Positions 4,612 to 42,027 of a DNA stretch of 42,027 bases are shown in pieces (position 1 is the stretch's first letter; every line of letters begins with the position of its first letter). Under the pieces are notes generated by a model. That model saw only the letters and a program-made list of their open reading frames with translations, was not told where the DNA came from and did not search any database. Made by a program: the position numbers and the translations under genes. The DNA is from a virus (Duplodnaviria; Caudoviricetes). Location: positions 1-42,027 of IMG/VR virus record IMGVR_UViG_3300047491_000179; one strand, given 5' to 3'.

Positions 4612-4790
4612 CCATTGTTCTTTGTTTCTATATTGGACACCTCCTCGTCTGGTATTAGCCCCTCGTATGACGGGTCGTAATCGTCATCGGTGTCGTTGCA
4701 AACATGAGGGCAGTCATCTGGTACAGGCAACCCCCATGTATCATCACAATCGCAGTCACATACATCACCGCAAAATGGGCACTCGTGCAT
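4602..4790 (-). CDS. Small Cys/Asp-rich acidic protein
   Basis: [17 protein letters not shown]...CPHVC; RBS GGAGGT. Confidence 0.65.
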   Translation of the reverse strand: MHECPFCGDVCDCDCDDTWGLPVPDDCPHVCNDTDDDYDPSYEGLIPDEEVSNIETKNNGWM

Positions 4791-5515
4791 CACTCCACCT
4801 CCTGCATTATCTCTAACAACTCCAATCGCCCACAACGCGCCTTGCCATTTGTGTTGTATGGCACAACAACATTCGGCAGGTCAATCCAGCGTATCCGACA
4901 ACGCCATATCGTTACTCCCTGATAATATTTTTGTATCCACGCCAACGTTGCGAAATTCACCCCACAACCACAATCCACTGTGGGAAGAGGATTGACCACC
5001 TCGGTGATAAATTCGCCGGGGTTGATTGTCCAATGTACAGGGGATGTGTACTCGGTGTTGCCAATCGCTTTATAAACGATATACCCCAAATCATCAGCCC
5101 GAAAATTATTCGCCAACCAGTTTGCCGGGTTGAGTAATCCATTAGCCCCACTCAGGTCAGCCCCGGTCAGGTCAGCCCCGGTCAGGTTAGCCCCGGTCAG
5201 GTCAGCGCAATACAGTTTAGTCTCGGTCAGGTCAGCCCTACTCAGGGTAGCCTCTTTCAGGTTAGCCCCACTCAGGTCAGCCCCGCTCAGGTTAGCCCCG
5301 GTCAGGTTAGCCCCGGTCAGGTTAGCGCGACACAGGTTAGCCCCGGTTAGGTCAACGTGATACAGGTTAGCGTGATACAGGTTAGCCCAGCTCAGGTTAG
5401 CCCCACTCAGGTTAGCCCCGTGCAGGTTAGCCCCGTGCAGGTCAACAACTTCATCTTGTAATATGTCTTTCAGGCATTTGCCATTTATAATAATCTCTTC
5501 AATGGTTCTCATCAC
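4790..5515 (-). CDS. Pentapeptide repeat protein with C-terminal domain
   Basis: About 20 A(N/D)Lxx repeats. Confidence 0.92.
5140..5445. repeat. 15-bp tandem repeats encoding the pentapeptides
   Basis: caggtYagccccRSt repeated. Confidence 0.9.
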
Positions 5516-5740: not shown

Positions 5741-5998
5741 TTCGCTCCCTTTATGCATGCTTGCTTTAGTTTGATGTCCGGTGGCTATCATCAATCCGGT
5801 TTCCCTATACTATTTTGTACGATACTCTTTCACAACGTTAATTATCACCCATCTTATGCTCCTTCCTGCGAACGGTACCAAGCTATCTCACGGTTCTCGT
5901 CTAACATTGGCTTTCCTCGCCATCTCGCGATATTCGCTATCTATGTTCGTTGCGTGGTAAATAGTCATTTCGTCGCTCCTTTTTTTTACTCTGTCATC

Positions 5999-6028
5999 AT
6001 CTTACCACTTGCGATATATACAAGACAA
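5999..6028 (-). promoter_or_regulatory. Early promoter cassette copy with variant -35
   Basis: TTGTCT-18-TAAGAT with extended TGG; about 70 bp near-identical to 40465-40534. Confidence 0.7.
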
Positions 6029-6045
6029 GTGCTAACTGGAACAAA

Positions 6046-7203: not shown

Positions 7204-7225
7204 TTTGTCGCTCCTTTCTACCTTC

Positions 7226-7255
7226 ATCTTACCACCTGCTGTATATACATGTCAA
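7226..7255 (-). promoter_or_regulatory. Early promoter
   Basis: TTGACA-18-TAAGAT with extended TGG; TGTATATACA palindrome in the spacer. Confidence 0.8.
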
Positions 7256-7263
7256 GTAGTCGG

Positions 7264-10968: not shown

Positions 10969-12914
10969 GGAGTGCTCCTCTTATACTCACTCGTATCATA
11001 ATGAGCTATATATATAACGTCCCCTCGATAACCTGCTGAACTTGCATTCTTTGAACTTGCCCTGATAATCACTTCATGTACACCATCAAAACTTAATGTG
11101 AACGCAAAATTCCATGCTACATTATAAGTGCTAGCTGATGAATATGTGTCTTTAGTAGAAGCCAGCGCCCCGTCTACGTAGAAATCTAGTATACCTCCGC
11201 TTGATGATGTAATCCATGAGCCTTCCACCCCCCATAAACCAGCCTGAGCCGCGAATGTGTACTTATAGCTTTCTCCGATTGCGCTAATGATTCTCCAATA
11301 TGTGTTATATCTACATAGAGGTTCCACGAACGCAGCCCAAGAGCCCACGAAATTGCATATCATGTTATCGCCAGCATACGTGAATCTCGACTTCGTTGCG
11401 TTGACCTGCGGTATTGTATCGGCTAGGCCCAGATTGGCGTCAGATATGTTTATCGTCAATGTCGTTGTAGGGGAGTTGCTTGCTATAGTACCAGCATAAT
11501 AATAAATAGCCCCCCCCGCCGTAGTCATATAAACCCTTCTGCGTATGTATGTCGTTCTATCCCCGCCTGAGCCAAACGTGCAAGGCAAACATGCGACCGA
11601 TATTTGTTTATGTGTAGCGTCTACAGTCACAGTTGCGGGCGGGCTTCCGAGCGTAGTGCCATACTGGTCTTCAAACACAAAGGCCACGCTGTGTACACCG
11701 TTGGTGCAATTGCCCGTGCTCGTTGCAATTTGGCTAACAGTAGGCATGTAATATGGTCTAGTTAACTGATACTGTGCCTGCACAGCATAGTCATTAGGCT
11801 TATTCCCTAACACCGTGCTCGAATTCACTGTCAAAGATGGCATAATGTTCACACCGCTCTGTGACATCTTAATCTGAGCAAACGTGTTGGGATTTCTGAC
11901 AGACACGGCATCAATAGCGATTACAGAACCTTGCTGAGTATCACCGCCTATGTAATTCCCAAGACAGTAAAAGTATATGGTTGCGGCATTTGCGCCTGTA
12001 GGGGCTAAATATGTTCCGAGTACATGCGTCCAAGGTCTCGGTACGGTCAAATACGTTTCCACGTTTTGAGTACCAAGCGAAGACCCGCCGACTAAGGCGG
12101 TAAACCATTCTATCACCACAGTAACAGATGGGTATGGCGTGCTCATCCTTATATATGCCTCGGCTTGATAATATGACCCTGCCGTAACAGCAAACCTGTT
12201 AGATGTCAGTTGCCCAATACACGTATTGTACGCTTCATCAAGCAATGGATTTGTAGGTACAACTGTCATCTGGAAAGAATACACCCCTTCGTACGGATTG
12301 GTTGTAGTTACGCCCCATGATGTTTTGGTGCTCGTTGCTGTCCATCCTGTCAGGTTGCCTGTTTCTGCGTCGCCGTTTGTTATAAGGTTGCCGTGAGATG
12401 GCGATAGCTCAGTGTAATTTATATCGAAATCATCATGCCCGCTTTGTGGCGACAAGGTCAATTCCGCTGTATCTACGTATCCAGTAGAGCCGTTCAAATC
12501 TGTATGCAAAACACTGTATTCGGTGCCGTGTACCGTAATACCGTCTGTGTCCATCGTCATAGATCCACCTGCAAACAGTGCTTTCCCTGTCGTTGCATCC
12601 AGCCCAAATTCCAAAGCTCCAGAACTCAGCCCCCCGATGTTTACGTTTTGGTTTGATATCGTTTCCCCTTCTGCGCTCATAAATACGCCAGTTGCGTTGG
12701 GGTCTGTAGGGTCGTCTCCCGAAGTTAGTGCTATAAATCTGCCAGCCCTGACATCACCCAAATCATTCGTGACTTCATCCAAAGCATTGAACGCGGTTTC
12801 TTGCTGTGCAAGGGTGTTTACTGCTTTTTGATTGTCTGCTTGCGTTGTCAAAAAATTGTTTCTAACAGCTTTTTTGGCAAGCATGTTATGCAGAACTGAC
12901 GCCATGTCCATCAT
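10965..12914 (-). CDS. Tail fibre / receptor-binding protein with carbohydrate-binding-module-like domains
   Basis: NLITNGDAETGNLTGW CBM-like start; beta-rich; start MMDM at 12914 after AGGAGGT. Confidence 0.7.
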   Translation of the reverse strand: MMDMASVLHNMLAKKAVRNNFLTTQADNQKAVNTLAQQETAFNALDEVTNDLGDVRAGRFIALTSGDDPTDPNATGVFMSAEGETISNQNVNIGGLSSGALEFGLDATTGKALFAGGSMTMDTDGITVHGTEYSVLHTDLNGSTGYVDTAELTLSPQSGHDDFDINYTELSPSHGNLITNGDAETGNLTGWTATSTKTSWGVTTTNPYEGVYSFQMTVVPTNPLLDEAYNTCIGQLTSNRFAVTAGSYYQAEAYIRMSTPYPSVTVVIEWFTALVGGSSLGTQNVETYLTVPRPWTHVLGTYLAPTGANAATIYFYCLGNYIGGDTQQGSVIAIDAVSVRNPNTFAQIKMSQSGVNIMPSLTVNSSTVLGNKPNDYAVQAQYQLTRPYYMPTVSQIATSTGNCTNGVHSVAFVFEDQYGTTLGSPPATVTVDATHKQISVACLPCTFGSGGDRTTYIRRRVYMTTAGGAIYYYAGTIASNSPTTTLTINISDANLGLADTIPQVNATKSRFTYAGDNMICNFVGSWAAFVEPLCRYNTYWRIISAIGESYKYTFAAQAGLWGVEGSWITSSSGGILDFYVDGALASTKDTYSSASTYNVAWNFAFTLSFDGVHEVIIRASSKNASSAGYRGDVIYIAHYDTSEYKRSTP

Positions 12915-20850: not shown

Positions 20851-22383
20851 TTATGCTACCCTTGCTCCGACAATCGCACTCTGCGCTATCGGGTGATAGC
20901 ACTTCAACGTTTCAGTCCAGAATGTCGAGAACGGGAACGAACGGTCTGAACGTGCCAGCTCAAAGTAAGTATACGGGGTCTGCACGTCAAGCGCAAACCC
21001 TCTTGCTTCCCTTGAATACTGATAAGGAATACGTTCAGACAGGAAAAGGAATGTTCCGTCTGGCATGTAAGGATGCGCCCACACCGGAATTGTAGCAGGT
21101 TGCTGACCCATCAATGAAGCGGCATATTTGTTGAGGTAACCTCCCACAAACACGCCACCAGTAAACGAACCACGTTCCGGCGCGATTTCCAGACGATACA
21201 TGGCGGCGTTATTGGCCGCAATCAGCTTGTCTGTCAGGTTCGAGGTAGAAGCGGGCGAACACACAATCAAGGTCGGATTGATAACCCACTGCGTCCACAA
21301 CTGCTGAAGAATATAATCAAACTCTGATACGCCAGAGCCCGCGGTTGTCAACGTGCCGCCATCCATATCTTTGATGATACGTCCGGTCAGCGATTGCCCG
21401 TATACTGTGCTTTTCTCAGCCCACGATATCAAGCCTTCAAACACGTTGGCGTTTGCAGTCCCATCTAAACTGGGGGGCGTCGGGTCGGTGTTTACACCAA
21501 CTGCCCACAGTTGCACATGGTTGACGGTCACATACGTCTGCCCAGAAGGCACGGTAATAGTCCCGCCTGTAGTAGCAAGAGGCGTGGTGCCTTTGTCGCA
21601 GTACTTCAAGCTGGTCAACGGGTTCAGCAAATAGGTTGCTCCCGCTCCACCGCCAGCGGCGGCGTTGACGTAAACCTTGTAACCTACTGCGCCTTCGACA
21701 GCTGGCCATGAGACATCCAAATAGTCAGCACCAGCCGCGGGCACGGTAATCACAACAGAGCCAGCGGTGCTTTCACCAACTGCCGAATTACCGGATGCGT
21801 TGGTAATGCTTCCCTGTAATGTCAGCGCAGTTACTTTTACAGTCCACGCGCCCACGCCGTAGGTTCCTACTGCATGTGCGGATGAGTAGTTGCCAGTAGG
21901 CACCGGAGCTGAGATAGCCGCGGTGTTGCCACCGAGGGTGATGAGTTCTTCCAGCCTGATAAGCGTTGACAGGGTCATGCTGGTTTCAATCGCCATAGGG
22001 TCATCATACCCCTGCGCCATCGGAATAGCCTCGAACTGCACAGAACCCTTTACCGCTTGGGTCTTGTAATCCGCTCCGATGGTTGTGCTGTTATCAGTCA
22101 CATCAGGTCCAGTTGCGCCGAATGCAGTACCGAAACTGGCAGCTGCTCCAAAGCCGAATGAGCCATATCCCAATTGCATACGCCATTGTGCTGAGGTACC
22201 GCCCATTTTAGGTCGGTCTGCTGGAAGCCTGTTTCTCAATCCTGCATACAATGGCAATAATAGTTTGGCGGTCTGCTCTAGGTTAATCCCGACAAACCCT
22301 GAACTTACAGTCAACGCCTTCGCAATCAAATCGGCGTCGTTAGAACCCATCAATGATTTTAAGTTATCTAAATCGCGATACAT
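20851..22383 (-). CDS. Major capsid protein with an inserted FN3/Ig-like domain
   Basis: Position after the protease; INLEQTAKLLLP, LEELITLGG, FEGL, AHPYMPDGT; insert LDVSWPAVEGAVGYKVY. Confidence 0.8.
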   Translation of the reverse strand: MYRDLDNLKSLMGSNDADLIAKALTVSSGFVGINLEQTAKLLLPLYAGLRNRLPADRPKMGGTSAQWRMQLGYGSFGFGAAASFGTAFGATGPDVTDNSTTIGADYKTQAVKGSVQFEAIPMAQGYDDPMAIETSMTLSTLIRLEELITLGGNTAAISAPVPTGNYSSAHAVGTYGVGAWTVKVTALTLQGSITNASGNSAVGESTAGSVVITVPAAGADYLDVSWPAVEGAVGYKVYVNAAAGGGAGATYLLNPLTSLKYCDKGTTPLATTGGTITVPSGQTYVTVNHVQLWAVGVNTDPTPPSLDGTANANVFEGLISWAEKSTVYGQSLTGRIIKDMDGGTLTTAGSGVSEFDYILQQLWTQWVINPTLIVCSPASTSNLTDKLIAANNAAMYRLEIAPERGSFTGGVFVGGYLNKYAASLMGQQPATIPVWAHPYMPDGTFLFLSERIPYQYSREARGFALDVQTPYTYFELARSDRSFPFSTFWTETLKCYHPIAQSAIVGARVA

Positions 22384-22397
22384 GCTGTCCTCCGTAA

Positions 22398-24188
22398 TTA
22401 ACTTTTAGGCGCAAGCGCAAAGAACTTTTGCGAATTTACGCCAGCTTCGTATAAAGATTGTTTGGCTAATTCGTCCACTCGCATATACAGAGCGGGCATA
22501 TCTCCAGCTTTAGCAATTGCACCTTTTAGGTCGCCCGCTCGCAATAGCTCACCGACAGGGTCTAACTGCACAGCGGATTTCTGAGGCACGTCACCTGCTG
22601 GTGCATTCTTCGCAACGTTCCCATTTAGCAACGCCATAATCTGACCGATAGCAGATTCTATCGCATCCAGGCGTGAACTTGAATCATTTCCGCTGACTGA
22701 TGGCGAAGAACCTGTTTCAGTCGCTGTACTGTCTACTTTTGTAGCAGTCATAGTGCTGGTCGGTTTGGTCGCGGTGCTCGCTGTTTCTGCCGTCCCCGTG
22801 GCGGTCTCCGATGGTTTAGTTTCGGATGGTTTGGTTTCCAACGGTTTGGTTTCTGTGCTCATTGCCGCTTTTATGGTGTCAACACCTGTGCTGGTATCTG
22901 CGCCTGTCGGTTTGGCGGTTTCGGTATCTACCGGAGTAGCGGCATCAGCCCCGACTTCCAGCGCAGACATCGCCTGCACAAGCATATCTCTTGCTTTCTC
23001 TGGGTCTGAGCCGATTGCTTCAATCGCGCCGTTTACCGTGGCTTTTACATCTGACAGCAAACCAGCCACGGACGCTTTAGTCATGTCACTCATAACATTC
23101 TCCCTTTCGACCCTCTTTTTAGTAGGGTCATACTTGAACATCTCGCCTGTCGTATCCGCAGATATCCTCGCGATTCGCCTACCCAATACAGCCCACTCTC
23201 TAGGTGTATAGGTAGCAATCCCTTTACCGACGTTGTAAAGCTTGACGCTTTCGTACGCCCGCATCTTATTATCGCAAGCATACCGCCAGTTGGCTGGGTC
23301 GCCGTATTTCTTATAATCGCTAGATAATCCTTCTGTCGCTCCCGTGGGCGAGTCTGGTCGGCGTATAATGCCGATTGTTTTGCCTAACTGGGTCAAACGT
23401 TCAACATCCTCGTTGACGTTGCCCTTGGCAACGACCTCTTTGATTACTTTCAAATCCTCCACAGCCTGAGCAAATCTCCCAAGCGTTTCTTGGTCGATAC
23501 CTGCTCCCGCCGTCACTTCAACGAGTTTGACCTCCGGTATATTCGATTCTGTGCTCTCCATGTTGTCTGGCACATCCTCTACTGATGTATCGCCTTCTGG
23601 TTTCATAAACTCGGCAAATGATAACTCCTCTTCCTCTTCTTCTTCAGCGATTGCTTCCGATTTTAGCTCTTCCCCGAAATAGAAATTGTTGATAACCTGC
23701 CTGCTCCCGCCATCTTTCCTCATGCTTTTGTCGACCTTCACCAGCGTTATAACAGCTTGCGGGTTAGCGGGAACGTCCACCAAACTGATTTCTGTCAAAG
23801 CCATCTTTTTAATGATTCTGGTAGAACCTTCGTATGCCCAATCCAACGCTCTACCGCCAATCGAGAACCCTTTAAGCACGCCCTCTTTGACTTTTGTCAG
23901 CGCATCTTCCCCGTCTCTCGATTTGGACAAATACACTTGAACTCCAACACGCTTAGCGTCTTTATCCCCCCACCAGTTTTTTAGCATTCCAACAGCTTTG
24001 GGCTGGTGCATTTCCCTTATGCCCAAGGTTTCGGCGTCTCCAGTCATTGTGTCGACCATGACATCATAAGGTATACGGTCGCCCTGTCGGTCTTTTTCGT
24101 CTGTAGATGCCCACCCCTCAACTATGCGCTGTTCGGCGTCTATCTTCGTTATCTCCAAGCCGAAATGCAAATTACGCGATTTTGCCAT
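22398..24188 (-). CDS. HK97-type prohead protease fused to a DUF6582-like domain and scaffold
   Basis: RIVEGWAST..DRQGD, REMHQ, GFSIGG, EISLVDVPANPQA; KYGDPANWRY; T/S/E-rich tail. Confidence 0.88.
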   Translation of the reverse strand: MAKSRNLHFGLEITKIDAEQRIVEGWASTDEKDRQGDRIPYDVMVDTMTGDAETLGIREMHQPKAVGMLKNWWGDKDAKRVGVQVYLSKSRDGEDALTKVKEGVLKGFSIGGRALDWAYEGSTRIIKKMALTEISLVDVPANPQAVITLVKVDKSMRKDGGSRQVINNFYFGEELKSEAIAEEEEEEELSFAEFMKPEGDTSVEDVPDNMESTESNIPEVKLVEVTAGAGIDQETLGRFAQAVEDLKVIKEVVAKGNVNEDVERLTQLGKTIGIIRRPDSPTGATEGLSSDYKKYGDPANWRYACDNKMRAYESVKLYNVGKGIATYTPREWAVLGRRIARISADTTGEMFKYDPTKKRVERENVMSDMTKASVAGLLSDVKATVNGAIEAIGSDPEKARDMLVQAMSALEVGADAATPVDTETAKPTGADTSTGVDTIKAAMSTETKPLETKPSETKPSETATGTAETASTATKPTSTMTATKVDSTATETGSSPSVSGNDSSSRLDAIESAIGQIMALLNGNVAKNAPAGDVPQKSAVQLDPVGELLRAGDLKGAIAKAGDMPALYMRVDELAKQSLYEAGVNSQKFFALAPKS

Positions 24189-24664: not shown

Positions 24665-24797
24665 CGCCAACCTCCTTGGCATCACGCTCTGCTTTTTTAT
24701 GCCCGTATGGCGCAGTAATCTCTTCGCCCCAAATCCGTGCCGTGGCTTGATTTGCTGTTTGTTTTTCATTTCGCTCAGGTGTATTCTTTTTACTCAT
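24609..24797 (-). CDS. Possible 62-aa protein directly after MuF-ART
   Basis: ATG overlaps the end of MuF; hydrophilic; overlaps the next gene by 56 nt. Confidence 0.35.
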   Translation of the reverse strand: MSKKNTPERNEKQTANQATARIWGEEITAPYGHKKAERDAKEVGDDTNGMEHKKTPVDKQAG

Positions 24798-26130
24798 AGG
24801 TTCCCTCAATTAGCATCGTCTCTCGATTGTTTTTCGTATATTTGCTGATAGCCGTAATCGTGATTTTAGCGTTTCTAGGAAGCAGAACCTCAGCTTCGGT
24901 GTTTATTCTAGACAGGTTGTTGGCATTGAGATATGCCGCTTTCGCGCCAGCCTTCGCTATGATGTTAAATTCTATACGGTAATTATTAGCGCTTAAGAAA
25001 TCATCTATCACACCACTCACCGCGGTTGTAGATAAGAATCCTTTGTCCCATATCGTGTCGCCAACTTTCACGACTCCATTTTCGATGTCGTTGTATAACG
25101 GCTCATGCGCTGTACCGCGTTTCAATAGTACGTCAAAGGGCAACTGGGTTTTATCAATCGCCGCGTCCAAAAGCTTTGTCTGCTTGGCCGCGTCAGGATA
25201 CCTAGGGTTACTGTAATCTTCATCTCTAGCGCAGGCGTTTATGCCTCCATATGCAATACCCGTATAATCCGAGATTGCAGTTTGCTCGTCAAATGTAAGG
25301 TTGTCTGCCCATTGTTGGTACGAAGGTATCAATGCTAAGTCCGCGTCATCCACGTCGGCGTATTCTTGATACTGCCCATCTCCCTGTGGTGCAGACAGCG
25401 GCTCAGGTGGCACATTTTCTGCAGCTATAGCGTTCGCCTCTGTTGTCTCCGTAAAACTCATTTCGCAGTTGCACCTTGGGTGCATCGGCGGCTTGATGTC
25501 GTAATCGCTTAGTTTGTATGGCGACTCGCTAGCCTTGCTTGCGCAGTCATCACAAGTATTTTCATAAAGAGGAACCCAGACCCAATGGTCCACGCCTATT
25601 GTTTCCATAACATCCGTCATTACTAAAGCCGATAGCCGTGTCGTTTCTGTTATCGCGATACTTCTCGCTCGCTTTTCATCGAATAGTTTGCGCATTCTTG
25701 CCTCTAACGCTTCCCAATCCTCTTTAGGGTCGACTACCCATTCAGCGATGCCAGTTCGCAATACGTCCTGCGTGTTAGCCGTTATACCATCTATGTAAAT
25801 GCCCAAAGTATTTGCATAGTATCGCATTTTGTCGGCTACGTCATACTCAAAATCTTTGTTTTTGTCATGCCAGTACTCTTGTTCGGGCGTCACTATAGTT
25901 TTTGCCGCTCTCGAAAAAGCTTCTGTCATTCCTTCTTTGAATGTAGTACTCCATTCTTCCCAAACGTCAGGATTATCGAACATGTCTTTCTTCAGGGTTT
26001 TCATGCCTTTGAGTTCTGCTAATACCACGCGCCATTGCTTTTGCAACAATCCATACGCGGCATCATACACCTGACGCTCTGCTTCTTTACGCGCCTTCTT
26101 CTTTTTGTTTCTGCGTATGGTTTCCTTCAC
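24790..26130 (-). CDS. MuF/SPP1 gp7-like minor head protein with C-terminal VIP2-like ADP-ribosyltransferase
   Basis: RARSIAITETTR, PPMHPRCNC; YT...INA, LKRG, GFLSTT, EAEVLLPRN. Confidence 0.9.
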   Translation of the reverse strand: MKETIRRNKKKKARKEAERQVYDAAYGLLQKQWRVVLAELKGMKTLKKDMFDNPDVWEEWSTTFKEGMTEAFSRAAKTIVTPEQEYWHDKNKDFEYDVADKMRYYANTLGIYIDGITANTQDVLRTGIAEWVVDPKEDWEALEARMRKLFDEKRARSIAITETTRLSALVMTDVMETIGVDHWVWVPLYENTCDDCASKASESPYKLSDYDIKPPMHPRCNCEMSFTETTEANAIAAENVPPEPLSAPQGDGQYQEYADVDDADLALIPSYQQWADNLTFDEQTAISDYTGIAYGGINACARDEDYSNPRYPDAAKQTKLLDAAIDKTQLPFDVLLKRGTAHEPLYNDIENGVVKVGDTIWDKGFLSTTAVSGVIDDFLSANNYRIEFNIIAKAGAKAAYLNANNLSRINTEAEVLLPRNAKITITAISKYTKNNRETMLIEGTYE

Positions 26131-26132
26131 GT

Positions 26133-28646
26133 TTACCCTTGCATATTCGGCATCACGCCCGTTTCCAATAATAACTTAGCTCGTTCTAAAGCTTTATCCT
26201 GCGCTGTTTCTCCAACGAGCTCTTTGATTTCATCCCACACCGCTTTATCTTTGACACAAGCCTTCAACGCCATGACGACCTCTTTTGGCAGTTGCTTGCC
26301 AGCCATCGCTTCCACAAACGGGCTTGTCTGTAAATAATCGTCTTCGGGAAACCCCAGACCGTTATCAATTAATATCATTCGCTTGTCGTCGTCTGGATGC
26401 GTGCGATAATTTCCTGTATGCCTGTCGGTTTGACACATAATAAAATCTAATGTGCCAGCTTTCGCCACCCATAGCGTGTCGTATTCGCTCACGTCCTCAG
26501 ACGGCTTTGAGCCTTTCACGTAATACACCACAGCACCCGCTTCCTTGTTGTACTCGGTAACGAATGCCACAGGCACAAGATAAAATTGCAATAATCGGTC
26601 TAACAAATATGCGGCTTCTTCCCTCAGGTATTGCCCACCGCCAACACGCTCAATTAATGTATCGACTTCGCCACCCTCTGGCTTCCATAGCGCAGGTACA
26701 GGTGTCATCCCGTCTTGTTTCAAAGCAACAATGTCGAGCGAATTTGCATGGTGGTCGTTCGGATACGGTATATCCGCAATGTTCACAACCTGAGCCCCAT
26801 AATAGCCATCATCTTCTGCTGATACGCCCACGCCTTTCTGCGTTTCCACCAACTGGCTTAGTAAGGTGTAATAGCTCGGATTCTCTTTTAGATGCGCTAA
26901 CGCAATACGCCCTTCTATCATCGGGTCGCCCTGCGTAATGTCTTCGTGCTCTTGCTCTTCCTGCAACCCCAACCTAAATTGCTCGAGGTCTATTTCATCC
27001 CATTTCACGCCAAGCGCATCTCCTATTTCCCTAGCCCTCGCTGTATTTATTTTAGCTTTTGGAGCAAACTTTCCACCGTGCTGGTGCGGGTGTTGCATCT
27101 GTACGCTTATGAATTTGGTTGTTAGTCTGCCATCATTCAGCATCGTTGCGGCACTATCACGGTTCTTTTCGTCTTGCTCCGCGTCCTTCTCTTTTTCTCC
27201 AGACGCGAGATAATCGCTAAGTTTTATCAAACCCCCACCAGACACCATGAACCGTTCATCGCCACCGTCTATCGGTTCTCTGCCCATCTCGGACAGCGCA
27301 TCGTTCAACGTAATGACGCCTGACCTAAATAAGTCCAATGTATTCTTGGTGTGGATTTGTGGGTCTATATTCTCTGCCACCTGTCCCAGCTCGAACTTGT
27401 CTGTAATCCCAAACCTGCCGAATATCTCGTTGAGGCATCCTTCTAGATATAGCTTCAACGGTGACAATCCCATGCGATACAACGTGTTTTGCATCATGTC
27501 GCCGAAGCCCTTCCCACCCAAGCCAGAGCCAGGCATCTTCCCCCACTCTGACGGAGGTATGCCGTAAGCCAAACTTAGGTTATCTCTTGCCTGCTCATAC
27601 AATGTTTTCGGGAAGTCTGGCTTCTTCGTAGGTACGTAATTGAACCCGCTCGGCACCAGTCTAATGCGATTCCTTTCCGCTAAACCGCTCATCTGTCTGG
27701 CGTTTATCGTCTGTTCGTAGAGGTCTATCTGCTCTAACGTCCAGCCCTCAGGCGCTTGCATAAGCCCTTCCGGCATGTTCCCTTCCCTGTAATGCGCTAA
27801 CTCAAAGCCTGAGATGTTTGCGATTATAAGCACCCATGCCCATGACATTTCTATAGGTGACATTCCATACGGCGCGTTATAACGCCGGAACCGCGGCCTG
27901 TACCACATTTCATCTTGCGAGTACCACCCGAACGGCGTTCCTTTTATGACCTGCACAAACGCTGGCGTACTAGGGGCTTTGAATAGATTATTCACATCCA
28001 AATACTTGTTTAATTTACTCTGGTAGTCTGGCGCATTTATGATAACCGGGTCTTTTGCGTCTGGTAGTGGAAGCTCGCCGTGCTGGTCAACAAGCACGAA
28101 GATTGTACTCCCGTCCACATATCTAAGGTTTTTCAGTTTTCCGAGCGTTTGTTCTATGTACAACGTCCCCGCGTCAAACACCAGCGCGGATTGCAAGAAT
28201 CTAGATGCCCACACAGTAAATGGGTTGACGCCGTCGGGTCTATCCAAGAATCCCTTATAAGGATGGTCTACAATTTGATTACCGTCTTTATCCACAAACC
28301 TTGGCGTAAAATTCGTGACTTCCTTCACCAACGTATTTACACACATCCTGATTTCTGATACATTCTCATAGGCTTCCGCAAGAGCGGCAAACGGCATCAG
28401 CCCGTAATTTGTCCGTGGTTGTATCGTTGCATTCACAGCCACAGGATAATCTATTTCTCGCGGTATGCCTTCCTCTATCGGATGGCTTATCGGTCTGATG
28501 GGCCAGCCCGGCGCATACGTTGTCTGTAACCATGCATCTGGCAACGGTGCCACATTTGGCTTAGGTGCTGGCGGCACCGGAGCTGTCGGTATTGGCACCT
28601 GCATTACTTGTGCCATAGCTTTCAATATGTCATTACGTATGCCCAT
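26133..28646 (-). CDS. Portal protein with C-terminal DUF5661-like and kinase-like domains
   Basis: LRYVDGSTI, YGMSPIE, GNMPEG, AYGIPPSEWG, GVITLNDA...PIDGGD; then EEQEH...IALAHLKE.P.YY; WKP, REEAAYLLD, DRHTGN, LIDNGLGF. Confidence 0.88.
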   Translation of the reverse strand: MGIRNDILKAMAQVMQVPIPTAPVPPAPKPNVAPLPDAWLQTTYAPGWPIRPISHPIEEGIPREIDYPVAVNATIQPRTNYGLMPFAALAEAYENVSEIRMCVNTLVKEVTNFTPRFVDKDGNQIVDHPYKGFLDRPDGVNPFTVWASRFLQSALVFDAGTLYIEQTLGKLKNLRYVDGSTIFVLVDQHGELPLPDAKDPVIINAPDYQSKLNKYLDVNNLFKAPSTPAFVQVIKGTPFGWYSQDEMWYRPRFRRYNAPYGMSPIEMSWAWVLIIANISGFELAHYREGNMPEGLMQAPEGWTLEQIDLYEQTINARQMSGLAERNRIRLVPSGFNYVPTKKPDFPKTLYEQARDNLSLAYGIPPSEWGKMPGSGLGGKGFGDMMQNTLYRMGLSPLKLYLEGCLNEIFGRFGITDKFELGQVAENIDPQIHTKNTLDLFRSGVITLNDALSEMGREPIDGGDERFMVSGGGLIKLSDYLASGEKEKDAEQDEKNRDSAATMLNDGRLTTKFISVQMQHPHQHGGKFAPKAKINTARAREIGDALGVKWDEIDLEQFRLGLQEEQEHEDITQGDPMIEGRIALAHLKENPSYYTLLSQLVETQKGVGVSAEDDGYYGAQVVNIADIPYPNDHHANSLDIVALKQDGMTPVPALWKPEGGEVDTLIERVGGGQYLREEAAYLLDRLLQFYLVPVAFVTEYNKEAGAVVYYVKGSKPSEDVSEYDTLWVAKAGTLDFIMCQTDRHTGNYRTHPDDDKRMILIDNGLGFPEDDYLQTSPFVEAMAGKQLPKEVVMALKACVKDKAVWDEIKELVGETAQDKALERAKLLLETGVMPNMQG

Positions 28647-28663
28647 GATTTATCCTGTCACCT

Positions 28664-29881
28664 TTATATGTTCAACTCATAAAATTCGAGTTGTTTGGCT
28701 AACCTGATTGCATTACCAGACACGTTTGTCGTTCTATATAGGTATGCCGTGTTTGGCTTCATCACGATTTCTGTGCCCTGCCTGATGAACCCGCCCGCTT
28801 TCCCACCACCTGTACCGCCCGGCAGATAAAATGTAAACAGCAACGTTCCCACAGATGTTATCGTTGCGCCCGCCCTGATTACGGTAGTGGGCGTCGTGGC
28901 TACATTTCTATTCAAATTTGTTGGCGTCAATACCGTCCCGTTGCTCCCTACAGCATCCTCGTAGATGTTCAACGTACAAGCCCCCTCAGCTTGGATAGCA
29001 GACACTAAGTGACACATATCACTACCCGTCACAATATAACAGTCAGAATCGCCGCTGTTCGCCAGCGAAGGCACAGCTATTGATGTTGTCCATAACGCCC
29101 CCTGATGTACGTACTCGTGCACATAATCCGTGGTCACCTGCAAATTCGACCCGTTGACGCCTTCCATCATCTCGTACAACACCTCTTTTAGCGACACAGT
29201 CAGATAACCTGACGATAGCGATGCGGGCAACCCAGCCCCAAAGAACGCCTTGATTGCCTTCAATAAACCAACTAACGTGGTAGCCGTAGATGCGTCTGTG
29301 GTCTGCCCAACTGTCGGGTCATGCGTTGCCAGCGCATTGTCACCAGCAGAAACAGATGTCGACATCGCCACCCTCGCAGTCAATGCGCTGTCACCGCTCT
29401 TGATTTCTGACGTCACACCTGCTGATAACGATACAGGCATTGGCGTCCCTGATGTATCGCCCTGTACTGTAAGCACACCGCCCGCTGGAGTTCCCGCAGT
29501 CCCAGCACCGCCTATTCTCAAATAATGCGTTACGGCGTTTCTGACATCTGCCAGTATCGCTACCAACCCACGAACATGCGAGTTTACCGTTCCCGTTGCA
29601 TCTACCGCAACGGCGGGGTCATCGGTTTGCCCTGTTGTAGGGTCTTTTACGGCGACAGCATGCGAGCTCGCTGTTATCGCCGTAGCAACAGCTACGTTGG
29701 CTTGGGTAGCTGTCAGGTCATCCTTCACTGTAACGGCGCCAAGGGTGATTGCCCCTGTGGATATCGTGGCGTTTACGTCTAGCGAATATGTACCGTCCCC
29801 ATTATCAACAGCCTTGACAGGTATCTGCTTTGCTGTTTCGTCATAAAATACTAGATGTTTATCAGTCATAATATCCTCCAA
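28664..29881 (-). CDS. Ala/Thr/Val/Gly-rich putative virion (decoration/fibre-like) protein
   Basis: Low-complexity beta-rich sequence with an internal repeat (DPTTGQTDD/DPTVGQTTD); lies between terminase and portal. Confidence 0.55.
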   Translation of the reverse strand: MEDIMTDKHLVFYDETAKQIPVKAVDNGDGTYSLDVNATISTGAITLGAVTVKDDLTATQANVAVATAITASSHAVAVKDPTTGQTDDPAVAVDATGTVNSHVRGLVAILADVRNAVTHYLRIGGAGTAGTPAGGVLTVQGDTSGTPMPVSLSAGVTSEIKSGDSALTARVAMSTSVSAGDNALATHDPTVGQTTDASTATTLVGLLKAIKAFFGAGLPASLSSGYLTVSLKEVLYEMMEGVNGSNLQVTTDYVHEYVHQGALWTTSIAVPSLANSGDSDCYIVTGSDMCHLVSAIQAEGACTLNIYEDAVGSNGTVLTPTNLNRNVATTPTTVIRAGATITSVGTLLFTFYLPGGTGGGKAGGFIRQGTEIVMKPNTAYLYRTTNVSGNAIRLAKQLEFYELNI

Positions 29882-29890
29882 TTACTTAAC

Positions 29891-29919
29891 AATATATACC
29901 ATTCCTGTTCATCGGTCAA
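29891..29919 (-). promoter_or_regulatory. Candidate promoter for head genes
   Basis: TTGACC-17-TATATT. Confidence 0.45.
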
Positions 29920-31381
29920 CTGGCAGTTTCACGCCTGACTTTTCACTATACTCTAACAAGTCCGCTGGTACGCTTTCTGCCCTGATTACTCCTTTTTTGT
30001 ATCGCTCAAGCTCTTCGCTCGTTACCGTATACGGGCTTGCAAGTTCGTTGAACGCGCCACTTGTCGCATCCATGATGTCGTCGTGCTTCATGTCGGGTTG
30101 TGAATGCATGTGGTTTATCCATTCATCATTCCATGAGCCCGCCAACAAGTACACGTTCCCAGCCTCTGATTGAGCGGCAAATGGCTTCGCTCTCGATATT
30201 TTGTCACCGCTTGGGGCAACACCCCTTGCGTCAAACCCGATAAGCAAACCCGCAATATACAAGCTGTCTCTTTTGCCGCTCGCGCCACCTTCGCGCTCCC
30301 ACCTGACTACGTATCTTGTCCCCATCTTACTCGCCTCGTATAAATCCTGCCTCGCAAGGTTGGCAATCGCTCTGTCTGTGTCCGTAGGCGATATCCTTTG
30401 CGCCGTCATGTCCAGAACGTAAAACTTACCATCCACAAACCGCATTTTTACGGACGCGGTATAGTCGGGGTCACTTCCCTTGAACTTCGCCTCGGTAGCG
30501 GCTAAATCCCAAAAACGGCAATCAACACCGCCGTTCGGTACTGCGTCTACGATTTTATACCATTCTCGGTTGAACAACTTGCCCTCCGCTTCGCGTATCT
30601 TCCAGTTCCCGCCTCGTATTGGGTCGCCTAACAACCTCTCTCTATCCACCAATGGCAATGCCTGCAACGACGCCAAATAGCCCGGGTCTTTCGCAGTAAG
30701 TATCGGATTGTCATAGATAGTGAACGGCACAAACGTGACTGTCTTTGGGTCTTTATCTGGGAACTGCTCTCTCAACTCCTGTTTCGTGTCAGCCCAATAC
30801 ATCTCTCCGTTATCGCCTCGCACAAACGCGCGTATCTTCCCCGCCCTCTCCATGTCTGCGTACCCGTCGGGCGCTATCCACCAATCCAAAAATTTTGCCA
30901 ACCAATTCGGCTCTGGGTTCGCGGTAGCTCTTAGGTACGAGTTGACACTACACACGCTCCTGTTCCTCGACAACATGTAAAAGAACTGCCTCTCGGTAAA
31001 CGTTTCTAACTGGTCGAACATTAGCAACGCGACCTGCGCCGATTTCCAATTGCTTAATGATTGCTCGTTGGTTAAATGCCCAAAACCTATTTTGGACTTC
31101 GCGAATCGATACTCCAACTTACCAGCGTTCGGCACACCGCCGAACATTGGGTATAGTTCGTTCGCGTAATCCCAAACGCCACCTGTTTTTGTAATTTCTG
31201 GGTATGTCCGTCTTAGCATGACGGAATTAAATTTGTTTGTCTGGAAATGGCGCAACGGCTCCAATAACAATGCGTAAGTTTTTCCCCCGCCAGCGGCACC
31301 TCCCCCTATAGCTATGTCCGCTTCACTAGCTAAGAACTCCTCTTGCTTGTCATGTAGCCGAATCTCAACATCGTCATTCAC
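29909..31381 (-). CDS. terL: Terminase large subunit
   Basis: GGAAGGGKT, LRRTYPEI, ATANP, FWDLAA, DYTA, HDDIMDA. Confidence 0.93.
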   Translation of the reverse strand: MNDDVEIRLHDKQEEFLASEADIAIGGGAAGGGKTYALLLEPLRHFQTNKFNSVMLRRTYPEITKTGGVWDYANELYPMFGGVPNAGKLEYRFAKSKIGFGHLTNEQSLSNWKSAQVALLMFDQLETFTERQFFYMLSRNRSVCSVNSYLRATANPEPNWLAKFLDWWIAPDGYADMERAGKIRAFVRGDNGEMYWADTKQELREQFPDKDPKTVTFVPFTIYDNPILTAKDPGYLASLQALPLVDRERLLGDPIRGGNWKIREAEGKLFNREWYKIVDAVPNGGVDCRFWDLAATEAKFKGSDPDYTASVKMRFVDGKFYVLDMTAQRISPTDTDRAIANLARQDLYEASKMGTRYVVRWEREGGASGKRDSLYIAGLLIGFDARGVAPSGDKISRAKPFAAQSEAGNVYLLAGSWNDEWINHMHSQPDMKHDDIMDATSGAFNELASPYTVTSEELERYKKGVIRAESVPADLLEYSEKSGVKLPVDR

Positions 31382-31779: not shown

Positions 31780-32496
31780 CTAAAAGCTCAAACTCACCGT
31801 GTACTCTGAGTTTTTTCTCGCTATTCTGTGAATGAAGCCGGGATACATCTTTATCAGCATCTCGATTGCCTGCTCTTCTACTTCGTGCGTTCGATAATCC
31901 TTGCATCCTCCCTCATCCTCCCAATGGCTGTTCACCCAATATACGTATCGTATTCCCGCCAGACCGCCGTCCTCTTTGATGCAACGTAGGCATATCTCGT
32001 AGTCTTCCTTGACCTTAAATCTTTCGTCGAACCGTATCCCTGTGTCATTTCTGATGCCCATCATCGACGCGGTGACATACGTCCTGAAGTTTATCGGCTT
32101 GTATGGAAAGGTTCCCTTCAAGCTACCGTCTGTGTTCACACCCCATATCCGGTAATTCATTTGCTCGGTGAGGTCGAACATACGTATGAACTCTCTCTCC
32201 CATTGTTCGCTCGTCATACTGTACGTTTTTGCAAAACTCTCGAATAGCCGAAAGTACCCCTGTACCTTTACGTCATCGTCGACCATGACAACCCAATCAT
32301 CATTACAATTGTCGAGTACCCAATTTCTTGTAGCTGTAATACCCTTTACGCTTGAAGGCACGCCGACAACCCTTTCACCATAAACACGAACATAATCATC
32401 ACGCTCATATTCAGGCACGAATAGCACACCGTTCTTTAGTATCTTGAGCGTTTTGACGCGTCCTGCTCTGCCTTTACTTGGTATCGCGATTAGCAT
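31780..32496 (-). CDS. TAGT/GREB1-like GT-A glycosyltransferase
   Basis: IAIPSKGR, RNWVLD, MVDDD, KEDYEICLR, EGGC. Confidence 0.8.
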   Translation of the reverse strand: MLIAIPSKGRAGRVKTLKILKNGVLFVPEYERDDYVRVYGERVVGVPSSVKGITATRNWVLDNCNDDWVVMVDDDVKVQGYFRLFESFAKTYSMTSEQWEREFIRMFDLTEQMNYRIWGVNTDGSLKGTFPYKPINFRTYVTASMMGIRNDTGIRFDERFKVKEDYEICLRCIKEDGGLAGIRYVYWVNSHWEDEGGCKDYRTHEVEEQAIEMLIKMYPGFIHRIARKNSEYTVSLSF

Positions 32497-33121
32497 TGAC
32501 CCGCTCCATAAACTTCTCTGCCGTAATCAACCGCTCTGCTCCAGCGTCATTGAAAGCCGACCCCTCTTTGTATCCCCCACGCCTAACCATCCCCAATCCT
32601 AAATAGGCTCGGATAGCGTCAAAATCCTCGTTTGTTTTGCAAACAATCATCACGTACTCTTGCTCTGGCAATAACTGCACAGACCGCTTCAGCAAAACCT
32701 CTTCGGTTTTATCCTCGACTTCTTTATGTAACTTGTCTAACGTGTAAACAATCCCCTCATTTTCGGTTTGTATGCCATCTATCAGACTGTTCAAAGCTTT
32801 CTGGTCTGCATCTGCCATTTCTGCAATCGGGTCTAGTGTCGCAAGCACTATATCTTCTTCCTCTGGCGTAAGCTTGACATACTTCACGGGGACTTCCTTT
32901 TCTTTATGCTTTTTAGCAAGCTCATACCGCAAGTGCCCGTCAATGAGATTTCCTGTTACTTCATTCACAATCAATTCCTGCACCCAACCGACGGTTTCCA
33001 ACACGCCGCTCAATGCAACTTGCTGATATTCTGGATGTAGTCGCCAGTTTTTAGGGTTTTTCTTAATATCCTCTACGGGCATAACTCCGTTACCCGTAAT
33101 TCGATTTCTCCACTCAGCCAT
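32474..33121 (-). CDS. ParB-N domain protein
   Basis: NPKNWRLH, GWVQELIVN..TGNLIDGHLR. Confidence 0.88.
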   Translation of the reverse strand: MAEWRNRITGNGVMPVEDIKKNPKNWRLHPEYQQVALSGVLETVGWVQELIVNEVTGNLIDGHLRYELAKKHKEKEVPVKYVKLTPEEEDIVLATLDPIAEMADADQKALNSLIDGIQTENEGIVYTLDKLHKEVEDKTEEVLLKRSVQLLPEQEYVMIVCKTNEDFDAIRAYLGLGMVRRGGYKEGSAFNDAGAERLITAEKFMERVNANRDTK

Positions 33122-33974
33122 TTCTCACCGCCCACTCCTGCAACTGTTTCCACTTGGGTTCGTCACCCTTGAACGCGTTTTCTATAATCTCTGCCGTCTC
33201 TGCCGGAACGCCCGACACGTCAAATATATCACGCAACGGCACCCACTCTTTATCCACCTCTTGCCCGAGGTATTCAAGGCACACCCTACTCATCATACCC
33301 AATATCACACCGAACGCGTGAATGTCATACTCTTTTCCCAACCGACGAATCAGGTACTTCAACAGCTTTATCCGCTCTAACTCGGCATGGTACATCTCGG
33401 TTTCCTCTAATGAGAAATTCTCTACCATTTGTTCGCAAGCTTTCTTGAACAAAGCCTCATCACTAGGAAAGAGGTTTATCCATATCGTTTTGTACTCTAA
33501 ACCCAAGTCTACCGTTTCGGCACGGGCTTGTTCTAGCTTCTCGTACAAAGCATTGGAATCCAAGAACGCCTCCAGCCTCGACTCGATGTCACTAATCGTC
33601 TCGTATATCTCTTTCAACGTGTCTGGGTCATCCGACCCCTGAATGGAATTATGCGCCAACTGCTTACCTTTTATCTGGTCACGCGACAGGTTAGACACGT
33701 CGACCAACACAAACAACTCTTCTAATCCAGCCATCTTGGCGGCTCTCACCCTGTGATGCCCTGAAACAATTTCGATAGTCTGCTTACCACCGTTATCTTT
33801 AAGCGCGCAAAACGGGACAGACTCCAACCTTCCATCCCGCCCTATCGTCATCGCCAACCTTTGTATCGCATCGCCTGACATCACCCGAGCGTTTTTGTTC
33901 TGCTCCCGCAGTTCGTTGATGCTCGCTTTCCACAACTCTAACCCATGCCCTAATTCGTACACTTTCTCAGCCAC
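33114..33974 (-). CDS. ParB-N domain protein
   Basis: KNARVM, IVSGHHRVRAA, QLAHNSIQG. Confidence 0.88.
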   Translation of the reverse strand: MAEKVYELGHGLELWKASINELREQNKNARVMSGDAIQRLAMTIGRDGRLESVPFCALKDNGGKQTIEIVSGHHRVRAAKMAGLEELFVLVDVSNLSRDQIKGKQLAHNSIQGSDDPDTLKEIYETISDIESRLEAFLDSNALYEKLEQARAETVDLGLEYKTIWINLFPSDEALFKKACEQMVENFSLEETEMYHAELERIKLLKYLIRRLGKEYDIHAFGVILGMMSRVCLEYLGQEVDKEWVPLRDIFDVSGVPAETAEIIENAFKGDEPKWKQLQEWAVRNG

Positions 33975-35346
33975 GCGATTTCTCCTTCCACTTTTCTAGC
34001 CAATCGCTCAATAGTTCACCCCAATGTTTTCCATTCCACTCGGTTTCATACTGCAAAAGGAAGCCACCGTTCTTTTCTTCTCGCTTTATCAACTTCATAA
34101 CGCCCCTGTCGGTTTTACCCTCGTGCCTCTTTGTGGGGCTGGATGTCCTGATACCTTTAGGCTCGCGCATCTCGAGGATAATGTACTTCGAGAGTATCCA
34201 ATCCCTAAAGTCAACACTCGTCAACATAAGCATAAATAGCTTACCTATCCTCATATATCTTTCGCACGTTTTGCTTATGCCATAGACTTCATATATGTAC
34301 TCGACCTTACCCAAATACACATCACGCACAGCCAGCCCCCACACGGTTGTAACCCTACCGTCTATCAGCATAACACCGTTCAAATCCGCAACCGTCAAAC
34401 CTAACCCGTGAACAAACAAATCGCGGTAATACTCAGCTTCATTGGCTTTGATTAACTCAAAACTTATCTTGCTGTCTGGCCTGATTTCCTGTTCTTGATA
34501 TATCTCGTATGGAGCGGTTGGCACTTTTTTGACGGTATTCTGAATAAACCTATCGTCCAAATCCCTGTTTGTCAGAACGTATGAAGTCCTCTTCCCTCTA
34601 ACCTCTGCGAACACTTTGTGCCATTTGTCGCTGAATCTGTCAGGATAAGATGTCCATATGCACATCAAAGATGGCACATTGGTCATGCCGTCGAACGTTT
34701 CACTTAATTCATTTGGCCCCAATTCTTTTATCGGCTCCGGTTTCCAACCGAGTAAAGTTGCTGGGTCTTCATACGATTTTGTGTATACCCTGCTCCCACT
34801 AGGCGGGGTCATATAAAACAACGTGTTCCCTTCGATTGCTTTCATCTCAGTTAGCACGTCACGGACGTCCCTTCTTTCGTACTTCAACCCAGCGAGCGAC
34901 GTCCTCATGTCTATCAAATCCCTGACCATGTTATCCACATAAATTCTTGCGTTGGTTTTCAATTCCCTCTGCACCGACGCCATGTACGGGTTTTTCGGCT
35001 GTACCCTTAAATAATGTAAAGCTAACAAATACCACGCGGTGTATTCCATATCACTCGCGCCAACAGGCGGTGCAAAGCAACCCAAGCTGTCGGGCATGGA
35101 TAGATTTAGAGACCGCACGTTTTTGCTCCCGTCTAAACAGTACCCTATCAATGTGGAAAACAACGAGAAGTCACTTGTTTCGATTTTACTGGCAGGATAA
35201 CCCGCCGACACCAACGCACTCACCGTCGAGAACGAGCCGACGCATGGGTGTATGACGCGCTCTGGATTAGTCGACGAAACAAGCGCGGACATAAACTGCC
35301 GCGCTTTAGAATTTGTAACACCCTCGAACAAACGGAATGGGTTCAT
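33967..35346 (-). CDS. Degenerate DNA adenine methylase-like domain fused to a putative GNAT-like domain
   Basis: Motif I-like IHPCVGSFS, ETSD, motif IV-like FYMTPP; C-terminal VMLIDGRVTTVWG...YMRIGKLFM. Confidence 0.5.
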   Translation of the reverse strand: MNPFRLFEGVTNSKARQFMSALVSSTNPERVIHPCVGSFSTVSALVSAGYPASKIETSDFSLFSTLIGYCLDGSKNVRSLNLSMPDSLGCFAPPVGASDMEYTAWYLLALHYLRVQPKNPYMASVQRELKTNARIYVDNMVRDLIDMRTSLAGLKYERRDVRDVLTEMKAIEGNTLFYMTPPSGSRVYTKSYEDPATLLGWKPEPIKELGPNELSETFDGMTNVPSLMCIWTSYPDRFSDKWHKVFAEVRGKRTSYVLTNRDLDDRFIQNTVKKVPTAPYEIYQEQEIRPDSKISFELIKANEAEYYRDLFVHGLGLTVADLNGVMLIDGRVTTVWGLAVRDVYLGKVEYIYEVYGISKTCERYMRIGKLFMLMLTSVDFRDWILSKYIILEMREPKGIRTSSPTKRHEGKTDRGVMKLIKREEKNGGFLLQYETEWNGKHWGELLSDWLEKWKEKSRG

Positions 35347-36470: not shown

Positions 36471-36507
36471 GCAAATCAAGTTGGCGAAATTCGCCAACTT
36501 GATTTGC
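36471..36507. repeat. Perfect inverted repeat with 18-bp arms
   Basis: gcaaatcaagttggcgaa-a-ttcgccaacttgatttgc. Confidence 0.9.
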
Positions 36508-38582: not shown

Positions 38583-38612
38583 TTTGTCTCTCCTTTTTTT
38601 CAGTCTGTCTTT

Positions 38613-38642
38613 ATCTTACCACCTACGGTATATACATGTCAA
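38613..38642 (-). promoter_or_regulatory. Early promoter
   Basis: TTGACA-18-TAAGAT with extended TGG. Confidence 0.8.
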
Positions 38643-38663
38643 GTGGACTGGTTATTAAATACA

Positions 38664-38694
38664 GGACGGGTTGGCGAAATTCGCCAACCCGTCC
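38664..38694. repeat. Perfect inverted repeat with 15-bp arms, sharing its core with 36471-36507
   Basis: ggacgggttggcgaa-a-ttcgccaacccgtcc. Confidence 0.9.
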
Positions 38695-40471: not shown

Positions 40472-40502
40472 TTCGTCGCTCCTTTTTTTTTACTCTGTCA
40501 TC

Positions 40503-40532
40503 ATCTTACCACTTGCGATATATACAAGTCAA
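40503..40532 (-). promoter_or_regulatory. Early promoter
   Basis: TTGACT-18-TAAGAT with extended TGG. Confidence 0.8.
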
Positions 40533-40561
40533 GTAGACGGCTCAACTAGATTTAAACGGCT

Positions 40562-41448: not shown

Positions 41449-41810
41449 TTCGTCTCCTCTGCCTTTTTCACAACAACATGCACACCAATTCTGCTAGCAT
41501 CTTTTATCTGTGTCTTCGTCAGAATCAACCTGACTACTCGCTTGTCGTTCTTAAATATAGAACCCTGTAGCCCATCCAATACACACTTCGACAAGTTGTC
41601 TAAATCCGCAAGGTCACGCTTCACATAAAAATCAAGGTGTACCTCTACAGCCTCGTCGAGCAAATCACCGTCATGGGCTTCCTTAGCCGCGCACCATATC
41701 GCATTCTGCCATTTCTTTACGTTCTTGGTTTGGTAAGAATGTCCAGCCGCGTAACGAAAACTTTGCTTGGCATAAGCCCAACCATGCACAAAGAACTCAA
41801 CCGAATACAT
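41445..41810 (-). CDS. rusA: RusA family Holliday junction resolvase
   Basis: DLDNLSKCVLDGL...NDKRV. Confidence 0.9.
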   Translation of the reverse strand: MYSVEFFVHGWAYAKQSFRYAAGHSYQTKNVKKWQNAIWCAAKEAHDGDLLDEAVEVHLDFYVKRDLADLDNLSKCVLDGLQGSIFKNDKRVVRLILTKTQIKDASRIGVHVVVKKAEETK

Positions 41811-42027
41811 AAATCTCTCCCTTCGATATAAACTCGAGTATGTCGTCGACCTCCTTTTTCAAACATTCCTGTGGTATCCACTTGTCGTCTACGTTGACCG
41901 TGTCAATCCATCTTGCGAGAGCAATCCATTGTGCACCGCTCAACTTCTTTGAACTGCTCACGCCGAAAAGAAATTTTATGACCTCCTTTCTCGCGTCATC
42001 GCTACCAGCCATTCTATTCAGCGTGCC
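41773..42027. repeat. Terminal direct repeat / circular overlap, copy 2 (ORF 41797-42012 duplicates the 3' part of 25-363)
   Basis: Direct sequence identity with the window start. Confidence 0.97.

Follow-up and report, generated by a model that had tools for sequence, protein, structure and literature searches.

Enzymes carried on phage head proteins are already a known theme. Portal-fused PBECR, 2H, InPase, Nudix and ADP-ribosyltransferase (ART) domains have been presented as likely injected effectors (Iyer 2017, PMC5512222; Iyer 2022, PMC9503650). In the available text of these two papers and of a paper on MuF toxins (Jamet 2017, PMC5576092), the enzyme is attached to a head protein within a terminase–portal module, is predicted to be packaged and injected, and is proposed to be processed by metallopeptidases. 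Prohead proteolysis has been described separately. According to the accessible part of PMC7411985, the SPN3US protease recognizes a single short motif when it cuts portal and ejection proteins; for T4 (Alt) and the SPN3US E proteins, such a motif marks cuts, made after Glu, in capsid, portal and ejection proteins that are separate polypeptides. For S78-type proteases, the HK97 maturation cut is placed at K103/S104 (PMC10275583, excerpt). As for phage kinases, the T7 kinase disarms defences by phosphorylation, and both T7 gp0.7 and JSS1_004 are proposed to disarm the host in this manner (PMC13645617, excerpt).

The window, as we call the whole stretch of 42,027 nt analysed here, comes from freshwater metagenomes and is filled by a siphovirus-like phage genome with profile matches for tail tube, tape measure and Dit genes. 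A genome-quality tool assigned the record to its linear class with 44% completeness. The ends are joined by a 255-nt direct repeat (1–255 and 41773–42027). A probable DNA-modification cluster on the minus strand (33967–35346, 33114–33974 and 31780–33121) comprises a DAM-like protein fused to GNAT, two ParB-like proteins and a TET-associated glycosyltransferase. A 51-nt intergenic repeat occurs four times (5980–6030, 7207–7257, 38594–38644 and 40484–40534), upstream of minus-strand genes, and looks promoter-like by eye. There is also a gene made of 15-nt repeats (4790–5515; pentapeptide-repeat-like) and a perfect 18-bp inverted repeat (36471–36507), an arm of which is found again at 38670.

The head module lies on the minus strand. 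It includes the terminase large subunit (29909–31381; profile matches), upstream of the fusion gene that is the subject of this study (26133–28646), and between the two a 405-aa gene of PHROG 5335, a family of unknown function (28664–29881), whose product has N-terminal relatives near head genes at three other loci (L001, L004 and L005). The fusion ORF stops 3 nt before the start of the next gene, the two being free of overlap. This neighbor (24790–26130) encodes a MuF minor head protein fused to an ART (PF03496, E 6.5e-24; PF04233, E 0.009; PHROG 3895 and 115) and is the second head-cargo gene of the window; its ART part is VIP2/Alt-like, and the MuF-to-ART linker contains no lysine. Then come an S78 (HK97-type) prohead protease that ends in a scaffold-like tail (22398–24188; PF04586, E 1.9e-8), the predicted processing enzyme, whose motifs EMHQ, GFSIGG and EISLVD line up across loci, and the major capsid protein (20851–22383; PHROG 13692), the homologs of which are annotated as such by position and family. 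PADLOC returned no match for five head proteins. Thus, as with the effectors described by Iyer and by Jamet, a head protein encoded in the window's packaging module bears a fused enzyme domain.

The initial annotation had read the fusion gene as a portal, a DUF5661-like domain and a kinase in a single frame. ORF analysis, profiles, structural models and contigs all bear this out: the gene encodes 837 residues with no internal stop. The portal domain (residues 1–480; 27207–28646) is matched by PHROG 2662 over residues 60–493 (E 1e-31) and by PF04860 (E 4e-8, under the curated cut-off), and its top Foldseek matches are the portals of phage 812 (E 8e-17), GTA, T5 and HK97. Both the fold and the place between terminase and head genes identify it as a portal. 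It is followed by HPHQHGGKFAPK (residues 519–530; 27057–27092), a variant of a tag, HPRxxxG(K/R/E)F, and by a helical domain (residues 538–599; 26850–27035) that PF18905 recognizes as DUF5661 with 60.5 bits (E 2e-16), well above the curated cut-off of 27; structural comparison gave a TM-score of 0.78. The kinase occupies residues 605–837 (26136–26834). In the full-length model (pTM 0.44) the linkers 510–531 and 599–604 are of low confidence, the latter with pLDDT below 50; the kinase domain modeled separately reached pLDDT 92.5 and pTM 0.90. DUF5661 is elsewhere fused to prohead proteases, OsmC and CBS domains (ESM Atlas rows), hinting at a metal or redox module in heads; a feature search of the Atlas for DUF5661 gave no usable match.

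Could the fusion be an assembly artefact or a chance read-through joining separate genes? One relative (L020) does have the two parts split. However, three Logan contigs from two studies span positions 24700–29000 unbroken, with 0 substitutions and 0 gaps; these are contigs rather than raw reads and may be the source of the window DNA. The homologs provide independent support for the frame: a portal lies N-terminal to the kinase in 37 of 39 homologs found with the kinase, and the kinase is attached in 97 of 111 found with the portal. This census refutes the artefact, whose probability we regard as negligible, and the single-frame fusion is confirmed.

The portal is a twelve-copy assembly (available text of PMC7411985), and the initial annotation had predicted up to 12 kinase copies per particle. 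A programmed −1 frameshift could yield free portal, but no slippery heptamer is present at the window junction, and among 23 family genes only four have one, at unrelated positions. Nor did we find an internal start before the kinase, either in the window or at any of 21 loci. With no conserved frameshift or internal start to free portal or kinase, all twelve subunits should carry the cargo.

We next considered what kind of kinase this is. All of the motifs quoted in the initial annotation are present between residues 654 and 763: WKP (654–656), REEAAYLLD (675–683), DRHTGN (741–746) and IDNG (760–763). The key residues K655, E660, E676/E677, D741, R742, N746 and D761 are all retained. The model has two lobes with the ATP-binding Lys, the catalytic Asp-x4-Asn and the metal-binding Asp of PI3/4K-like kinases. 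The domain therefore appears intact, as had been claimed, and judging from its residues and modeled fold it is very probably catalytically active. By structural comparison the closest structure is PI4KIIalpha (Z 18.5, rmsd 3.6, 222 aligned residues), followed by Fam20 (Z 15.5), CtkA (Z 13.3), HipA (Z 10.8) and CotH (Z 10.2). Foldseek and a PDB sequence search agree, PI4K type II being the best PDB sequence match (E 0.001). Of the original assignment to PI3/4-kinase/HipA-like enzymes, the PI3/4-kinase part stands and the HipA part does not, since PI4K type II, Fam20 and the SCO1664 family are nearer. A HipA toxin is also at odds with the absence of any HipA profile match at E 0.01 and with the neighbors, which are MuF-ART and a virion gene instead of a HipB antitoxin.

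Profile scores place the domain outside curated families. PF00454 gives 18.6 bits against a cut-off of 27.1, a threshold that a few homologs do pass. TIGR03843 (SCO1664) matches 24 of 28 family members, all far under its cut-off; the window kinase scores 47.3 bits (E 1.6e-12) against 172.4. Similarity to the SCO1664 family is nonetheless evident, with a TM-score of 0.83 to its Atlas models and a profile probability of 97.6% to an Anaerolineales copy. A tree of 117 domains, built with 25 of the 94 core family members defined below, put the portal kinases into a single clade and 28 of 30 loci from the phylum to which genome G001 belongs into a second, each supported at 1.0; its remaining branches are distant domains, in part from WXG100 or MuF carriers. 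We therefore do not regard the window kinase as a SCO1664 family member: that family (Actinomycetota, Chloroflexota) is standalone and chromosomal, and the phage kinases are portal-borne and make up their own clade. Nor is it the Kinase-PolyVal of Iyer 2017, for which there is no Pfam match; in the available text of PMC5512222 the kinase lacks the C-terminal subdomain, whereas the window kinase has a full helical C-lobe in the model. With human PI4KIIalpha/beta, Fam20 and Helicobacter pylori CtkA the phage kinase has in common its fold and the motifs YLxExxAYLxD, LDYxxxxxDR and IDNGLxFP, but it is far smaller (233 aa), strongly acidic and only about 20% identical. It matches no PHROG kinase family and represents a different kinase family from T7 gp0.7 and JSS1_004. 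Its gene lies in the head module, whereas the T7 kinase is expressed early from the phage genome.

Distant kin occur on WXG100-bearing proteins, and proteins of 1500–6100 aa contain them in tandem arrays (P0076, P0127, P0134, P0136, P0139, P0143 and P0153); these are possible polymorphic-toxin kinases. The initial annotation had regarded a kinase on a portal as much less familiar than cargo on MuF. That view has to be revised, as enzyme–portal fusions are in print (PMC5512222 and PMC9503650, in the text available) and BFVD contains PI3/4K-like folds on head proteins, namely MuF proteins and one 1201-aa portal (A0A6J5S481); further BFVD folds of this kind come from phages Onyinye, GodonK, HHTV-1 and HSTV-2. 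A PI4K-like kinase on a portal is not named in the available text of PMC5512222 or PMC9503650, the accessible text of PMC5576092 has 0 occurrences of 'kinase', and the PMC9503650 supplement has no PI3, PI4, DUF5661 or Fam20. In the mostly open-access literature searched, we found no description of this kinase family, of DUF5661 or of the lysine code discussed below; the supplements of PMC5512222, outside that scope, may list the architecture.

How widespread is the fusion? A single-protein scan of viral contigs gave no matches, but alignment-based searches did find relatives. In the kinase-first search, the 7 shorter matches are all on contigs of 3.2 kb or less. A profile search of a 50%-identity library listed 150 proteins; our core set consists of the 94 that include the domain start and reach a score of 125 bits or more. 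At 50% identity the kinase family, not described before, comprises 94 clusters or more. A portal is present in 69 of the core set, always upstream; the other 25 include truncated proteins as well as true standalone or otherwise fused forms. Most family kinases open with HCGVC (CxxC), with Cys in 62 and 57 of 94 at the two positions; the window kinase opens with GVGVS instead (26820–26834). The family has no match among 50,697 cultured phage records, and a query combining MuF and kinase gave only MuF matches among the best 40 of 1182.

The portal-first search, which removes the bias of a kinase query, yielded the 111 portal homologs. Along with the 97 kinases, 41 carry DUF5661. Six residues (K655, E660, D741, R742, N746 and D761) are all intact in 90 of the 97 portal kinases. 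Other cargo varies: 2H/Acb1-like phosphoesterase, ART, zeta toxin, Nudix, MuF-like domains and a second PI3/4K-like domain. That second, different kinase lies downstream on portals P0048, P0049, P0050, P0054, P0061 and P0068; in the cases inspected it follows HPR..GKF tags, and three copies placed in the tree separate from the first kinase. Unlike the Iyer and Jamet effectors, as the available text describes them, one cargo here is carried by nearly the whole clade. Cargo kept by almost all members resembles a core function more than the exchangeable cargo of an arms race.

This raises an alternative in which the kinase never meets the host, but phosphorylates phage head proteins (scaffold, MuF or portal) or works inside the particle. 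The kinase is kept while DUF5661, 2H and ART come and go, and across 61 proteins the portal and kinase distances are correlated (Spearman 0.37; permutation maximum 0.19). Moreover, where the L020 portal lacks the kinase and carries an ART, a standalone kinase is the next gene, and a separate kinase gene probably adjoins the portal in the pairs P0005/P0186 and P0021/P0190 as well, since within each pair the contigs are equally long. (L020 also has an ORF, ferritin-like by eye, at 11066–11557, between MuF and a protease–capsid fusion.) Several observations speak against an assembly role, however. At least 7 of the 97 copies have lost catalytic residues, several full-length portals have no kinase domain, and no such kinase was found in related cultured phages. 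Moreover, the portal and kinase trees agree only in part: of 17 supported kinase splits, 6 are shared with the portal tree and 7 conflict with it. Taken together, we consider a purely phage-directed role improbable. Copies without catalytic residues were seen in L010, L021 and P0234–P0236; L010 and L021 keep the upstream lysine.

That lysine bears on the earlier proposal that the prohead protease cleaves the cargo from the portal, for which there is now evidence at the sequence level. The residue just before the kinase, K604 in the window, is Lys in 94 of 97 portal homologs. Two positions ahead of this lysine, 85 of 89 have a hydrophobic residue, against 33% for lysines within the kinase core. 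The same hydrophobic-x-Lys motif closes the capsid propeptide, in exact register in 12 of 18 aligned rows (two of them duplicates) and within 3 residues in all 18; in the window the predicted propeptide end is IAK (residues 20–22; 22318–22326). It also precedes 39 of 43 2H domains if Tyr is allowed (shuffled mean 14, maximum 22) and occurs in 43 of 61 portal leaders (shuffled mean 23), the window portal having a predicted N-terminal site ILK at residues 7–9 (28620–28628). Finally, it accompanies two tags, HPRxxxG(K/R/E)F and GGPGSGNFGHxGRxG, that recur right behind predicted cuts and ahead of variable cargo: it lies no more than 14 residues upstream in 29 of 30 HPR tags and precedes 10 of 11 GGPGSGNFGH tags. 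We view these tags as candidate ejection or DNA-binding signals; the kinase itself has none of the tags that open much of the variable cargo.

Because one motif fronts unrelated folds (kinase, capsid protein, 2H domains and tagged modules), it points to a shared prohead-protease site. Some of the signal may nonetheless be helical patterning, since the motif is over-represented rather than depleted inside kinase cores (150 occurrences; shuffled mean 116, maximum 142). Furthermore, standalone kinases retain the upstream lysine (L020), which fits a structural role as well as it fits a cleaved leader. At the family level the kinase boundary bears the motif as it occurs at the capsid propeptide boundary, and cleavage at the position equivalent to Lys604 seems likely. 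The window site, T602-Q603-K604 (26835–26843), lies at the edge of a low-confidence linker and is non-canonical, with the sole Thr among the 89 at the hydrophobic position; cleavage of the window protein itself is predicted with somewhat less assurance, though we still hold it to be the better bet. Here the cut would follow Lys, with cargo and portal in one chain, as opposed to the Glu cuts on separate proteins in T4 and SPN3US (PMC7411985, accessible part), and a prohead-protease site would take the place of the metallopeptidase processing proposed in the available text of the Iyer and Jamet papers. A cultured comparison is offered by Arthrobacter phage Mufasa8 gp3 (NC_049478), a related portal (24% identity) that continues into Nudix and MuF domains. 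Its Nudix domain lies between hydrophobic-x-Lys motifs, which are found again in scaffold and capsid; unlike the window portal, gp3 has no kinase.

Portal C-termini face the capsid interior, and portals stay in the particle instead of being ejected. Since the portal stays behind, tethered cargo needs a cut to leave. In the reading that we favor, the fusion would build up to twelve kinase copies into each prohead, the S78 protease would free the kinase at Lys604 inside the head, and the freed kinase would be ejected with the DNA to act at an early stage of the following infection by phosphorylating a host target. We give this reading as a whole a probability of roughly 45%. Among its later steps, retention in the particle followed by ejection seems slightly better supported than the contrary, and we see the chances as balanced that the substrate is a protein involved in host defence or take-over. 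In favor of the reading are the effector-like fellow cargo (2H/Acb1-like, ART, zeta toxin, Nudix and second PI3/4K-like domains) and the distant kinase kin on WXG100 and MuF carriers. Counting against the scheme are the Thr at the window site, the window's own tag HPHQHGGKFAPK, which is the only one of the 30 lacking the upstream motif, and the motif's not being depleted in kinase cores.

The kinase might instead act late in the producer cell, while attached to the portal or just released, blunting defences that sense portal or protease; cleavage would then merely clear it away. According to the available text of PMC13728456, portal and prohead protease are indeed immune triggers (Avs, SpbK and type I CBASS), and the T7 portal itself counters the stringent response. 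The 2H domains on the same portals, with both HxT/S motifs in 40 of 43 and some matching Acb1, would suit such a role, as would the standalone kinase gene in the L020 operon. However, that a processing site is conserved right where the folded domain begins suggests a product kept intact rather than destroyed, and abundant standalone protein would suit a cytoplasmic role better than a dozen copies in each particle. We rate this alternative as unlikely, although not as low as the phage-directed role.

A further alternative retains delivery but changes the substrate to phosphatidylinositol or an inositol metabolite, so that the host membrane or redox buffer would be altered at entry. PI4K type II heads both the structural and the PDB sequence matches, TIGR03843/SCO1664 matches most family members, and SCO1664 is invariably linked to the mycothiol gene mshC (PMC4255298, excerpt). 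The strong genome matches are two family loci on contigs of Anaerolineales and Dehalococcoidales (Chloroflexota) MAGs. Yet the contigs that carry this host link are short. Among 401 genomes of the G001 phylum, only G001 had a strong match; 183 had some match, nearly all weak and SCO1664-like, and the portal kinases are a clade apart from such chromosomal proteins. Fam20 and CtkA follow PI4K closely in structural rank. Moreover, the domain is acidic, with a net charge of −17 in the window (family median −16), which argues against membrane binding, and the model shows no obvious segment for membrane anchoring. A lipid or inositol substrate thus seems about as improbable as the phage-directed role.

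Returning to the portal-loaded, protease-freed kinase, the fusion is conserved and probably processed. Head-fused effectors have long been predicted, but the route from portal tether to host had stayed open. A motif common to the capsid propeptide and to the starts of unrelated cargo offers a concrete, testable release mechanism, and the cultured relative Mufasa8 makes it testable. An ejected kinase would add a virion-borne enzyme to phage anti-defence, where the T7 kinase is the model. The phage family may also help to reveal what bacterial PI4K-II-like proteins (the SCO1664 family and WXG100-linked copies) do; for these we found no biochemistry in the literature searched. A bolder and rather doubtful extension is that the portal serves a large, uncultured phage clade as a modular magazine: enzymes would be split by a lysine protease code, HPRxxxGKF and GGPGSGNFGH tags would act as ejection signals, and a near-obligatory PI4K-type-II-like kinase would be injected in a dozen copies to phosphorylate bacterial phosphatidylinositol or defence proteins. 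If true, the kinase would be an effector delivered by the virion, and the loading of proteins into phage heads would follow a readable grammar.
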